Shown here: in pieces, positions 10,825 to 14,222 of the stretch
How positions within the stretch are numbered: the first letter of the stretch is position 1
Layout of the letters: the number at the start of each line of letters is the position of its first letter
Source: Promethearchaeota archaeon
GTDB lineage: Archaea > Asgardarchaeota > Lokiarchaeia > Sigyniarchaeales > SOKP01
Assembly: GCA_016840165.1 (NCBI GenBank)
Contig: JAEOSU010000069.1
Coordinates: 1-15,318 of the forward strand
DNA length: 15,318 nt
Direction of reading: 5' to 3'
Translations under genes and position numbers: made by a program
Notes under the pieces: model-generated
The model's input: only the letters and a program-made list of their open reading frames with translations
The model's database searches: none
Told to the model about the DNA's origin: nothing

Positions 10825-11833
10825 TCATCCCCAATTCCATTTTTAATTGCCTGTATCTTAATGGTTCTTCTTCAAAAATATATAAAGTTGGAGCAATAAC
10901 GACACCACTGCCCCCAATAGCTCGTAAATTTGTGATAGCTTGTTGTAATTTTACTTTTTCTACAATTACATGAATCGCATACATTTTCTCCCCACTTTTG
11001 GTAAATACTGGAGAAATTGTCGGTCCTTGAAGTCCTTCTAACCCCTTTTTAGAAAAAATAGCTTGTGCAATCTCTTCGCTACTTTTTCCCCTCATATTGA
11101 CAAATAGTGAAACAAAATTTTGAGCACGCAAAGTAGCTTCAATATATTCAAGTAACTCACGTGCTAAAGTTAATACTGAGGTATGATTTAATGCCGTCCG
11201 ATTTCCAATCAAAACAGCTTCAGAATCAATTATTTTGCCTCCTTTAATTCGCTTTAAACGATTATCTTTTAAAGTCTGCCCTGTAGACACAAGATCTACT
11301 ATTATATCGCTATAATCTAATTCCGGATAGACCTCAAGAGAACTATTTCCCTTAATTAATTTATAGGAGATATCATGTTTAGCAAGAAATTTCTTTGTTA
11401 GATTTGAGAACTTAGTTGCGATTCGGATTGGTTTTTCTTTTTGTTCGATCTCTTCAATAGAATTTTCAGGCCAATCTTCGGGTATAGCGACTTCAAGACT
11501 ACATTTCCCAAAATTTAACGCATCGTGGATTATTATTAATTCATTTTCACTCGAAGTTAGATTTTCTAATACTAAGTCATAACCTACTATTCCCAATTCT
11601 AATGAGCCGTTTAGTATCCCTCTAATGATATCTAACTGTCGTTGATACACCAGTTTGACATTGATTGATTCTCGAATGAAACCAATATATTGTCTTTTCT
11701 TTCTTTGTATATTAAAGCCGCAGCTCTTTAAGAATTCCTCAGTCTCTAGTTCCATCCTTCCTTTTGAAGGAATGGATAGTCTCACATCTCGGTGTTTATA
11801 CTTAGGTGTTTGATTGAATTTCGATCTGTTCAT
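10814..11833 (-). CDS. hisG: ATP phosphoribosyltransferase, long form with C-terminal regulatory domain
   Basis: [31 protein letters not shown] and C-terminal [10 protein letters not shown]...[13 protein letters not shown] overlap with hisIE and GGAGG RBS. Confidence 0.96.
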
Positions 11834-12732
11834 TTACTTCGCCTCCGTAATTCATTTACAATCTCGCGAGGAGTGATCTTTTGGGTAGCCATTAAAACAA
11901 GTATAAAGTAGGTAAGATCTGCAATCTCCCAGATTAAATTATTGCGATCAGTATAATTAATGACTTCTAGTGATTCCTCTTTGATTTTCGCGAGTAATAA
12001 GTCATAATCCTCGGAAAGTCTTTTCGTATATGAATCTGTGGAGTTAGCATTCTGAATCCGACTTCTTAATATATTAAAAAGATAAGGAATAGAAAATCGT
12101 GAATTTTGAAAGCAAGAATATGAACCAGTATGACAAGCAACCCCGTTTTGATCTACTTGAAATAATAATGTATCAGCATCACAATCATAATAAATTTTTT
12201 TAATTATTTGAGTATTTCCCGATTGCTCACCTTTTATCCAGAGTCGGTTTCGCGATCTGCTAAAATAGATTGCTTTCCTCGTAATTATTGTACGTTTTAA
12301 TGATTCACGTGATGAATATGCTAACATTAATATGATATTATCAAGATCTTGAACGATTGTCGGAATTAATCCTTTTTGCTTTTCGAAATCTAAAGTATCT
12401 AGTAATAGATTATCTATTGATTCAAGATTGGTCTCATTATTAACACTGATAAACTTTTGATTGTTATTAGGATTAAAAATTCCTATTCTATATTTATTTA
12501 GCAAGCTTTTAAGCTCACTATTATTTCCTTTGGCTTCTATATCTATATCGATTTTTTGAGATATTTGGTCTATAATTTTTGTATTTAATAATTTAATTAG
12601 TTGTTCATTGTCTATTTCAAGCACTAGAGACAAAAATAAATCCCAATTTCTCTTTATAAATACCTCTTCAATAAACTCAAGTAAATCCCCAACCGATTCC
12701 ATACCATTCATATCAATTTTTAATTTTATCAT
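11830..12732 (-). CDS. hisIE: Bifunctional phosphoribosyl-AMP cyclohydrolase / phosphoribosyl-ATP pyrophosphohydrolase with about 110-aa extra N-terminal region
   Basis: HisI: [33 protein letters not shown] and [10 protein letters not shown]. HisE: [15 protein letters not shown] and EIADLTY. ATG 12732 has a GGGGG RBS 7 nt upstream and is preferred to TTG 12780. Confidence 0.93.
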
Positions 12733-12840
12733 TTTATAACCCCCAAAACTGAATTTAGTTTCAGTTTTTTTTAACCCCAATGAAAGTTAGACCATAAATG
12801 TCATTATCATTGGGATTATAGATGATAATGCCAATGATGC
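12733..12840 (-). promoter_or_regulatory. Putative his attenuator RNA (alternative helices between the leader ORF and the hisIE RBS)
   Basis: mRNA-sense pairings: CAUUAUCAU(12830-12822):AUGAUAAUG(12810-12802); AUCAUUGG(12838-12831):CCAAUGAU(12813-12806); UAAUCCCAAUGA(12818-12807):UCAUUGGGGUUA(12783-12772); AAAACUGAA(12768-12760):UUCAGUUUU(12753-12745). Confidence 0.7.
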
Positions 12841-12980
12841 GCTTTAAAAGAAGAGTTTTCAAAAATTTCTGCGTTTACATCATTGATTTTAATAAGAAAA
12901 TCCTTATTAGAAGTAATTGGAAAGGAGATACTCAATATGGTAATTTCCGGTTTAATTGTACCAAATTGAAGATCAATCAT
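12816..12980 (-). CDS. Putative his operon leader peptide, 54 aa: MIDLQFGTIKPEITILSISFPITSNKDFLIKINDVNAEIFENSSFKAHHWHYHL
   Basis: Translated by hand. ATG 12980 is preceded by TAGTGAAAAATA, the same context as the 934 gene start. All four His codons (CAT) fall in the last 7 codons. The stop is 83 nt before the hisIE ATG. Confidence 0.75.
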   Translation of the reverse strand: MIDLQFGTIKPEITILSISFPITSNKDFLIKINDVNAEIFENSSFKAHHWHYHL

Positions 12981-13340
12981 TATTTTTCACTAATATTGAG
13001 TATTTACTACTACATAAGATTAATTAGGATCTTTAGGTTAACTACACTAAAAAATATTTGCTTTCAAACATAAATTTCTAAAGAAAGAGAATATTCATGT
13101 CTTTTAATAAAAGGAGAGTTTTAATAATTGATAATATTCTCATCCCAATTATATGCCTTATTATTTTATTCATACTTTCTATAGATCAAGGAGAATAGAC
13201 TGGGATTTTTGAACCTCCTGGTCTTTAGTTTATAGAATATATTTTTTAAAAAATCCTAATACTCTTTTAATTTTTAAGTTATTAAATTATTTTTAAATTA
13301 CCCCTATAAAAGACATAAGATAATTGAAGGTTGAAATCAC

Positions 13341-14222
13341 GTGCAAATTGAATTTTTAGATAAAAAGACAGCTTCCTCAGTTATATCAGAGAAGGATTTG
13401 TATCTTAGCAACTTTAGTAAATTTGACATTCAATCTCGATTAGGAATTATCGAGGAAGCAACTTTGAACGATTTGATGGAATTTCTTTCATATCAAACAC
13501 TTAACTGGGATGAATTTGAAAGAGAGACCGTTGAAAAAATCTTTTCTGACTTGGAGCGAGCTTATATGCCCTATAAAGAAAATTTTCCTAAACACATAGA
13601 ATTAATAAAAACCACAGGAAGAGAAGAAGCTGATGCTGCATATACAAGAAAAAATAGAATTTATATCCCCATTTCAATGCTAGAATGGAGCTATAATGAA
13701 TTAAAAGAACTAATAGCCCATGAACTATTCCACGTCTTTAGTAATATGAACCCCAAACTAAGAAATGGGTTATACACTAAATTAGGATTTATTCCCTGTC
13801 CAGATTTACAGATTCCAAAGGCTTATCAAGATTTTTATGTAACTAACCCTGATACAATAGGAAAAAATTGTTACCTTCAATTTCTAGAGAATGGAGAACT
13901 TGTAAAAGGTGTTTCTTTTCTCTATTCTAAAGGTCCATATCGCGGAGGGTACTTTTTTCAATATTTCCGCTTTTCTTTTCTCATAGCTGAAGTGACTTCA
14001 AACAGATGTACCCCCCTGTACGATGGAGATCATATCAGGTTTAGCAAAGTCCCTCAGAGTCTCTATGATTTATGTACTGAATTAGATCCCTATAATAATC
14101 AGCACCGAATCCATCCTGAAGAAATTTTAGCATATTATTGGAGTTTACTTCCTTTCAGATTCTCAGAAATTAGTTTCAATAAAAGAGTTTTTTTAAAAAA
14201 AATCAAAAGCAAAATAATGTGA
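13341..14222 (+). CDS. Putative zinc metallopeptidase (HEXXH)
   Basis: AYTRKNRIY...LIAHELFHV and a downstream HPEEILA third-ligand motif. GTG start behind GAAGGTTGA. Divergent from the his operon. Confidence 0.75.
   Translation: MQIEFLDKKTASSVISEKDLYLSNFSKFDIQSRLGIIEEATLNDLMEFLSYQTLNWDEFERETVEKIFSDLERAYMPYKENFPKHIELIKTTGREEADAAYTRKNRIYIPISMLEWSYNELKELIAHELFHVFSNMNPKLRNGLYTKLGFIPCPDLQIPKAYQDFYVTNPDTIGKNCYLQFLENGELVKGVSFLYSKGPYRGGYFFQYFRFSFLIAEVTSNRCTPLYDGDHIRFSKVPQSLYDLCTELDPYNNQHRIHPEEILAYYWSLLPFRFSEISFNKRVFLKKIKSKIM

Follow-up and report, generated by a model that had tools for sequence, protein, structure and literature searches.

The 5′ leader of the histidine (his) operon in an Asgard archaeon carries an open reading frame (ORF) that reads as translated and ends in a cluster of His codons, and the stop codon of this ORF falls in the foot of a conserved and covarying RNA helix. 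The operon is complete and, leader included, occupies positions 12980 to 5628 on the minus strand of the window, by which we mean the whole 15.3-kb contig JAEOSU010000069.1 (15,318 nt) of a Promethearchaeota genome. We propose that the leader is a ribosome-mediated His sensor, in which the pairing of two leader segments, 2 and 3 (helix 2:3), would be the ON state and occlusion of the ribosome-binding site (RBS) of the first operon gene, hisIE, would be the output. We give this reading a probability of roughly 0.55.

In the proposed mechanism, the leader stop forms the first base pair of helix 2:3, which has 12–13 bp. When charged tRNA-His is scarce, the ribosome would wait at the first pair of His codons, about 20 nt before the stop, so that helix 2:3 and a hairpin downstream of it, P4, would stay folded and the hisIE RBS, just past P4, would be single-stranded (ON). 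When His is plentiful, the ribosome would run to the stop, unwind 2:3 and free about 50 nt of U-rich RNA made up of the 2:3 loop and segment 3. This freed RNA would then pair with the G-rich Shine-Dalgarno (SD) sequence or with the start codon of hisIE (OFF), and in the window the OFF form would be a (U/C)UUUCA:UGGGGG helix stacked on P4. We infer the His-dependent pausing, this assignment of ON and OFF, and an output at translation rather than at the transcript.

A leader ORF with His codons before its stop

We compared 19 distinct orthologous leaders taken from the genomes of relatives, from GTDB genomes and from metagenomes; these sequences are related to one another and not mutually independent. 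All 19 lie directly upstream of hisIE, and two of them, L100 and L101, come from sister species of the window's organism with 72–73% HisIE identity. The orthologous leader ORFs have 36–54 codons. Frame 0 is free of stops for 38–63 codons in all 19 sequences, whereas the other two frames hold 2–9 and 5–15 stops over the same stretch. Alignment gaps inside the ORF are all multiples of three (3, 6, 9, 12, 15 and 42 nt), and beyond the stop codon they measure 1, 2, 4 or 13 nt. The orthologs carry (A/G)GUGA or GGGA about 5–8 nt before the leader ATG or TTG. Since frame 0 is open, the indels keep the frame, and the SD sequence and start codon are conserved, the leader ORF is, as judged from the alignment, translated.

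The enrichment in His codons is established in the same 19 leaders, whose last 10 codons hold 3–6 His codons, nearly all of them CAU. Most leaders have two pairs of His codons, near −7/−6 and −3/−2 from the stop, and in the window leader the first 47 codons include no His and the last 7 include four. These results uphold a first-pass annotation of the window, which had placed the His codons in a translated leader.

A covariance model built on the part of the leader from the His codons to the hisIE AUG matched 15 of the family's 135 genomes, once in each, and these belong to two genera (8 of 42 genomes in one and 7 of 54 in the other). No His-rich leader was found in Lokiarchaeum ossiferum or before the bacterial relatives of HisIE. 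The hisIE ATG is invariant across the 19 orthologous sequences. The 3′ end of the 16S rRNA is GGAUCACCUCCU (= CACCUCCU), and GAGG, GGTG and GTGA are over-represented upstream of genes in the genome; together these two observations indicate that SD-led initiation is in use and make GGGGG(U) a credible SD sequence for hisIE.

The leader stop codon lies in a conserved, covarying helix

All inferences on structure are computational; pairings and energies were computed on the minus-strand RNA, in which 104 nt separate the His codons from the hisIE start. All the pairings that the first-pass annotation had listed, and a repeat that it had seen between segment 3 and the RBS, were found on this strand where it had placed them. 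Helix statistics are our own counts on alignment A5 of the 19 leaders, with column shuffles (500) and slid helices as controls.

Helix 2:3 joins 12818–12807 to 12783–12772 in 12 bp with one G·U (duplex −15.2 kcal/mol, hairpin −16.6 kcal/mol). Across the 19 leaders 96% of its cells are paired and 5 of its 13 pairs show changes on both sides, a result that none of the 500 shuffles matched, and the slid controls reached 15–61%. The covariation that the first-pass annotation had asked for in orthologous leaders is thus present in this helix. The leader stop stands at alignment columns 203–205 in 17 of the 19 sequences, with a tandem UAA UAA in the other 2, and the 5′ arm of 2:3 begins at column 204; the distance from stop to AUG is 82–87 nt in 18 of 19. 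The position of the stop inside the helix is thereby established at the level of sequence, as is the conservation of 2:3.

P4, the 9-bp hairpin at 12768–12745 (−6.8 kcal/mol), adjoins the GGGGG at 12744–12740, as had been claimed for it. It is 95% paired and nearly invariant, with one G-C to A-U change, and its 3′ arm (96% identity) is the best-kept block of the leader. The minimum free energy fold of 12860–12720 holds 2:3 and P4 side by side at −31.5 kcal/mol, compared to −18.8 ± 3.0 kcal/mol for dinucleotide shuffles (z −4.2; none of 200 shuffles equalled it). The P4 motif is unique in the genome, and with this single occurrence P4 as a repeated genomic element or a member of a family of protein sites was rejected.

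As an alternative to 2:3, segment 2 can form a helix with the His codons (1:2), in the two registers that the first-pass annotation had described. The 9-bp register joins CAUUAUCAU (12830–12822) to AUGAUAAUG (12810–12802) in a hairpin of −5.7 kcal/mol, and the 8-bp register has 7–8 bp and a hairpin of −9.2 kcal/mol. Both are present in the window and a 5-bp core of 1:2 is conserved in the relatives, but the 9-bp register occurs in the window only. The near-direct repeat of segment 3 and the SD sequence (TTGGGGTTA / TTGGGGGTTA; TTGGGG) likewise exists in the window, but inspection of the sequences and of the alignment found it, like the 9-bp register, in none of the relatives.

Three further helices lie upstream. 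P1 is 85% paired with 5 double-change pairs (none of the 500 shuffles was as good over the 19 sequences), P2 is 80% paired with 4 double-change pairs, and helix 0:1 is 81% paired with 2 double-change pairs, alignment columns 137 and 188 switching between A-U and G-C. Helices 1:2 and 2:3 compete for segment 2, and 0:1 and 1:2 compete for the His codons. The column chain 137-188-210-246 co-varies, which fits His codons that pair either upstream or downstream. The leader ORF is thus rich in structure of its own (region 12877–13003 of the window, minus strand). P1 surrounds the leader's own SD sequence and AUG, and helix 0:1 consists of the "NDV" codons (12886–12877) paired with the His codons.

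These helices bear on another explanation, in which the ORF encodes a small functional protein whose His-rich tail binds metal or histidine, or the inverted repeats serve a transcription factor as DNA operators, and the RNA switch is illusory. The peptides do share the motifs LS..F, SN and VI(R/K)S.DV, and in one clade the DNA of segments 2 and 3 and of P4 is in part a palindrome. The shared motifs, however, overlie the arms of P1, P2 and 0:1 and are altered by compensatory non-synonymous substitutions; because they sit on covarying helix arms, we read them as a constraint on RNA and frame and not on a folded peptide, and covariation of P1, P2 and 0:1 would account for the conserved peptide motifs. 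The leader ORF also has no Pfam match. As for operators, segment 2 is not palindromic in the window, L100 or L029, yet 2:3 is retained there. G·U cells outnumber A·C cells on the sense strand by 64 to 20 over five helices, and by 18 to 2 in 2:3, indicating that selection acts on this strand's RNA and not on palindromes in the DNA. An operator does not explain the stop-in-helix geometry and the 3n indels, and we regard small protein and operator alike as very improbable.

In the L026 clade, segment 2 (UAAUUC-CGAU-GAAUUA) and segment 3 (AUUC-AUYG-GAAU) can each form a local hairpin, and the two loops are complementary. Such hairpins may arise during transcription as intermediates before 2:3 forms. 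A frameshift from the His codons into hisIE was considered and rejected for this family, because the +1 frame reaches P4 in the window only and the −1 frame stops at once. In the other sequences the +1 frame nearly always ends about 20–30 nt past the frame-0 stop. In the window (12761–12862, minus strand) it is open for 33 codons, from before the His codons to a UGA in the 5′ arm of P4, and such an open +1 frame was not seen in 15 of the 19 relatives.

Predicted effect of ribosome position on the hisIE RBS

To place ribosomes on the leader we assumed a leading edge about 12 nt past the A-site; the footprint size for an Asgard ribosome is an assumption. With this footprint, a ribosome at the first pair of His codons spares 2:3 and a ribosome at the stop unwinds it wholly. 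The model therefore agrees with the first-pass annotation that a ribosome paused at the His codons would leave 2:3 intact, the stop codon being in the 5′ foot of this covarying helix.

We then folded only the RNA 3′ of the ribosome and took the unpaired probability of the SD sequence as the readout. A ribosome placed at the first His pair gave a mean of 0.61–0.64, and moving it to the stop lowered this to 0.41, with a drop in 15 of the 19 sequences. In the window it fell from 0.83 at the His codons to 0.34 at the stop, and the stop-state fold was the anti-RBS helix stacked on P4. In this helix UAACUUUCA pairs with UGGGGGUUA in 9 bp, 3 of them G·U (duplex −6.0 kcal/mol). Beyond the window the pairing is found only in L100 and L101, where it extends P4 as (U/C)UUUCA:UGGGG(G/A) and shows a single C-G to U-A change, and consensus folds made clade by clade give differing AU-rich pairings with the SD sequence or the AUG. 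RBS occlusion is tentatively favoured as the output on account of the right sign of the change in 15 of the 19 sequences and of the anti-RBS helix being kept within the window's sub-clade, and the output step is probably translational.

Several results weigh against this reading. The anti-RBS helix is 66% paired across the 19 leaders, no better than slid (42–67%) or shuffled (207 of 500) controls, so that the helix proposed by the first-pass annotation is present, and forms with a ribosome at the stop in the window, but is kept only in L100 and L101 and at control-level pairing. When the freed segment was dinucleotide-shuffled the mean SD unpaired probability was 0.47, compared to 0.41 for the real sequences, and in the window 29 of 150 such shuffles occluded the SD sequence at least as well as the real segment. 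Because shuffled and real sequences are nearly equal, the accessibility drop looks like a generic effect of U-rich RNA beside a run of G, in which selection is not demonstrable; the masking check foreseen by the first-pass annotation thus gave the predicted fall in the window, but one no larger than with shuffled freed sequence. Once segment 2 is left out, the 19 leaders share a consensus fold made up of P4 alone, with no occluding helix common across clades. Accessibility was unchanged or reversed in L028, L030 and L032, and the predicted effect, below 2-fold, is small for a switch. A ribosome at the last His pair (−3/−2) already opens the foot of 2:3 under the assumed footprint, and 2:3, being about 10 kcal/mol more stable than any alternative, re-forms once the ribosome leaves. 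Finally, the favoured model does not account for the strict sequence conservation of P4.

A nested fold, in which segment 2 pairs with the 3′ arm of P4 and the SD sequence while segment 3 pairs with the 5′ arm of P4, was rejected, as it was estimated to be far weaker than 2:3 together with P4.

Possible output at the level of the transcript

As the main alternative, the same sensor could act on the transcript. Melting of 2:3 would expose the U-rich RNA to a beta-CASP nuclease of the aCPSF1/FttA kind or to an endonuclease, so that the transcript would be ended or destabilised before hisIE, and a ribosome paused at the His codons would let 2:3 hide this RNA. Archaea would thereby have an equivalent of Rho-dependent leader control (mgtL/mgtA, tnaC). 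Its logic runs in the right direction and relies on 2:3, the sole conserved feature that depends on ribosome state, and the weakness of the translational occlusion signal speaks for it as well. Tracts of U4–U7 lie in the 2:3 loop of many species (U7 in L100 and L028, U5 in L106), and in a more distant leader, L047, a U7 tract lies after the leader stop and before hisG. Termination in archaea depends on U-tracts and aCPSF1/FttA. On the other side, the loop U-tracts vary in length and position, even the ON state leaves the loop unpaired, and no protein of the genome reaches the curated aCPSF1 cut-off (TIGR03675). We consider an output of this kind unlikely. The best aCPSF1/FttA candidates, at G000:C54:89074-90375 and G000:C51:33546-34703, are a 434-aa and a 689-aa protein; the former is a beta-CASP RNase without KH domains, and the latter is a divergent MBL/beta-CASP protein, the N-terminal 270 aa or so of which match nothing in Pfam.

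Classical transcription attenuation, with P4 and its U-tract as an intrinsic terminator governed by the upstream helices, has a familiar look, since P4 follows the leader and is followed by U3–U4, and the chain 0:1, 1:2, 2:3 and P4 recalls the series of helices from A:B to E:F in the his attenuator of enterobacteria. P4, however, is compatible with 2:3, does not overlap it and is formed in every modelled ribosome state, and the termination at hairpin-UUUU that the first-pass annotation had offered as one form of OFF falls with this. Only segment 3, freed when His is plentiful, could disrupt P4, which would invert the logic. In the inspected sequences the candidate pairings between segment 3 and P4 have 4–5 bp or occur in one clade, yet by column counts alone a short GAAUU:AGUUU pairing is 96% conserved. 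The pairing of the 3′ half of segment 3 with the 3′ arm of P4 as an antiterminator was rejected, as it has 10 bp in the L026 clade only and elsewhere is mostly wobble.

The U-tract points the same way. It is merely 3–4 nt long and runs into GGGGG, and a terminator scan gave no terminator-like site, in keeping with the earlier remark that so weak a tract argues against classical Rho-independent termination. Archaeal polymerases stop at longer oligo-U and need no hairpin; the host being an archaeon, the rules for bacterial terminators do not apply. Taken together, we hold classical attenuation to be scarcely credible here.

Stated more broadly, our proposal is a ribosome-sensing attenuator that evolved within Asgard archaea, in which a paused ribosome would keep a protective hairpin and the OFF state would be exposed U-rich RNA that either occludes the RBS or admits an archaeal termination or cleavage factor. 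We judge this version to have an even chance of being right.

Comparison with known leader systems

Leader-peptide attenuation is a textbook bacterial mechanism. As judged from its sequence, the leader has a co-oriented upstream ORF, an enrichment in cognate codons and mutually exclusive helices, all of which characterise attenuators, and it lacks the competing terminator of a classical transcription attenuator. As in the enterobacterial hisL attenuator (RF00514), a translated leader with His codons clustered just before its stop lies directly upstream of the his operon, the stop is at the edge of the second segment in a chain of alternative helices (0:1, 1:2, 2:3), and the position of the ribosome would select among them. 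Unlike hisL, the Asgard leader belongs to an archaeal host, has 36–54 codons rather than 16 and 3–6 scattered His codons where hisL has a run of seven, and has no G+C-rich terminator with a U-run, its last hairpin not being exclusive with 2:3. Nor does it match Rfam. The His_leader family (RF00514) gave no match in the whole window at the gathering threshold or in 12600–13400 at E ≤ 10, and the T-box (RF00230) gave none in 12600–13400 at E ≤ 10. Because the untranslated and the paused-ribosome states give the same downstream fold, the super-attenuation of hisL would not be expected.

Translational attenuation of ermC and cat, and the poly-Cys leader ORFs of mycobacteria (bioRxiv 10.1101/834739), share with the leader the control of RBS access by the position of a ribosome on an upstream ORF (uORF), with no terminator. 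In ermC, the SD sequence lies inside a stable, conserved 3:4 hairpin that is opened by the paused ribosome, whereas in the Asgard leader its default state is open, and the proposed occluding helix is weak, restricted to a clade and no better than shuffle controls. In Rho-dependent leader control (mgtL-mgtA, tnaC-tnaA), translation of the leader decides whether unstructured RNA is exposed, which fits a 2:3 helix that hides a U-rich stretch. The factor in the Asgard leader would instead be a beta-CASP nuclease, wholly by inference, with none at the aCPSF1 cut-off in the genome; to our knowledge, Archaea have no Rho. The eukaryotic uORFs of GCN4 and of the arginine attenuator peptide likewise tune amino-acid genes, and the Asgard archaea are a lineage related to eukaryotes. 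Those, however, use scanning and reinitiation or arrest by the nascent peptide, while both Asgard ORFs have their own SD sequence and conserve cognate codons rather than peptide sequence.

The full-text literature that we searched gave no report of leader-peptide attenuation in archaea, and one tool paper, citing reviews, counts archaea with the domains where uORFs control the genes that follow them. If our reading is true, ribosome-position control on a leader of cognate codons exists in Asgard archaea, in an architecture that could not use a bacterial-type terminator and would therefore need a new output step, and as a mechanism with neither a terminator hairpin nor a bacterial homologue. 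Functional transcription-translation or translation-translation coupling would then be used to sense metabolites in the prokaryotes most closely related to eukaryotes. The locus contributes a well-sampled leader family with a clear stop-in-helix geometry and a compact cis element of about 250 nt with which translation initiation, coupling and the remodelling of RNA could be studied in a lineage that has hardly any genetic tools, and it may aid the finding of small archaeal ORFs that gene callers miss.

Genomic context, feature coordinates and more distant leaders

In the NCBI taxonomy the Asgard phylum is called Promethearchaeota, and the source genome has 3.6 Mb and 31.6% G+C. After the leader the gene order is hisIE-G-D-C-B-H-AF, with a long-form hisG and a hisA-hisF fusion, and the Pfam matches run PRA-CH and PRA-PH, then HisG, Histidinol_dh, aminotransferase, IGPD, GATase and a double His_biosynth. 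The best relatives of HisIE (50–63% identity over the full length) are all in metagenome-assembled genomes (MAGs) of Promethearchaeota/Promethearchaeia, and the contigs carrying some of the closest measure 235 and 273 kb. Coordinates of the leader features are given in Table 1.

Table 1. Features of the his leader and of hisIE in the window
Feature	Coordinates	Strand	Remarks
Candidate archaeal BRE/TATA element ATATTTTTTAG	13047..13057	-	about 66 nt before leader ATG
P1 5′ arm AUACUCAAUAU	12993..13003	-	in 5′ untranslated region; pairs with 12938-12928
Leader-ORF SD sequence AGUGA	12987..12991	-	6 nt upstream of ATG
Leader ORF, 54 codons, ends HHWHYHL-stop	12816..12980	-	no frame-0 stops in 19/19; no Pfam match
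P1 3′ arm AUAUUGAGUAU	12928..12938	-	leader codons 15-18
P2 hairpin UCUAAUAAG / CUUAUUAAA	12888..12911	-	inside leader ORF; compensatory AAC/GUU to AAG/CUU
Segment 0 UCAAUGAUGU	12877..12886	-	pairs with His codons (helix 0:1); hairpin −10.8 kcal/mol
His-codon block CAU CAU UGG CAU UAU CAU (segment 1)	12822..12839	-	His enrichment in 19/19 leaders
Segment 2	12807..12818	-	opens with leader stop UAA (12818-12816)
U-rich 2:3 loop	12784..12806	-	variable, 63% column identity; 3′ end (12789-12781) is the anti-RBS stretch and overlaps segment 3
Segment 3 UCAUUGGGGUUA	12772..12783	-	3′ arm of helix 2:3
P4 hairpin AAAACUGAA-ACUAAA-UUCAGUUUU	12745..12768	-	95% paired; 3′ arm 96% column identity
hisIE SD sequence GGGGG	12740..12744	-	7 nt before AUG (12732); ortholog variants SD-like: GAGGG, GGGAG, GAGG
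hisIE, first operon gene	11830..12732	-	300 aa from conserved ATG; Pfam PRA-CH, PRA-PH

An (A)A..YTTTTTTAG motif occurs at a distance similar to that of the candidate BRE/TATA element in about a dozen related sequences (for example L100, L101, L026-L029, L033 and L065), and the element may thus be a promoter. A promoter scan of the window gave promoter-like matches only at the level of shuffles. Among public sequencing runs, none of RNA was listed as containing the sequence, and no carrier organism is known in culture.

Residues 1–135 of HisIE, an N-terminal extension of about 135 aa, have no Pfam match and are kept in the Asgard relatives (alignment A2), and some relatives in the same genus have HisIE forms of about 400 aa and no leader. 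In the genome, which is 99.7% complete, there was no match to Chorismate_bind (trpE) or LeuA_dimer. Judging from these gene contents, the organism is probably unable to make Trp or Leu while retaining a regulated His pathway, and for the same reason no trp or leu operons were available for comparison of leaders. A crude scan of the genome for ORF tails rich in His or Trp found only the hisIE leader.

Three further MAGs (L034, L060 and L047) have more distant leaders with His tails ahead of their his operons. The leader in a MAG labelled Nanoarchaeota (L047:~228-362) has HHHHN before its U7 tract, and that of a Heimdallarchaeota MAG (L060:1358-1554) has the tail HHHHIHHHL. The leader of another archaeal MAG (L034:1174-1455) carries 8 consecutive His; its stop codon lies in the loop of a hairpin formed by the His codons, and the sequence just past the stop can pair with the hisIE start region.

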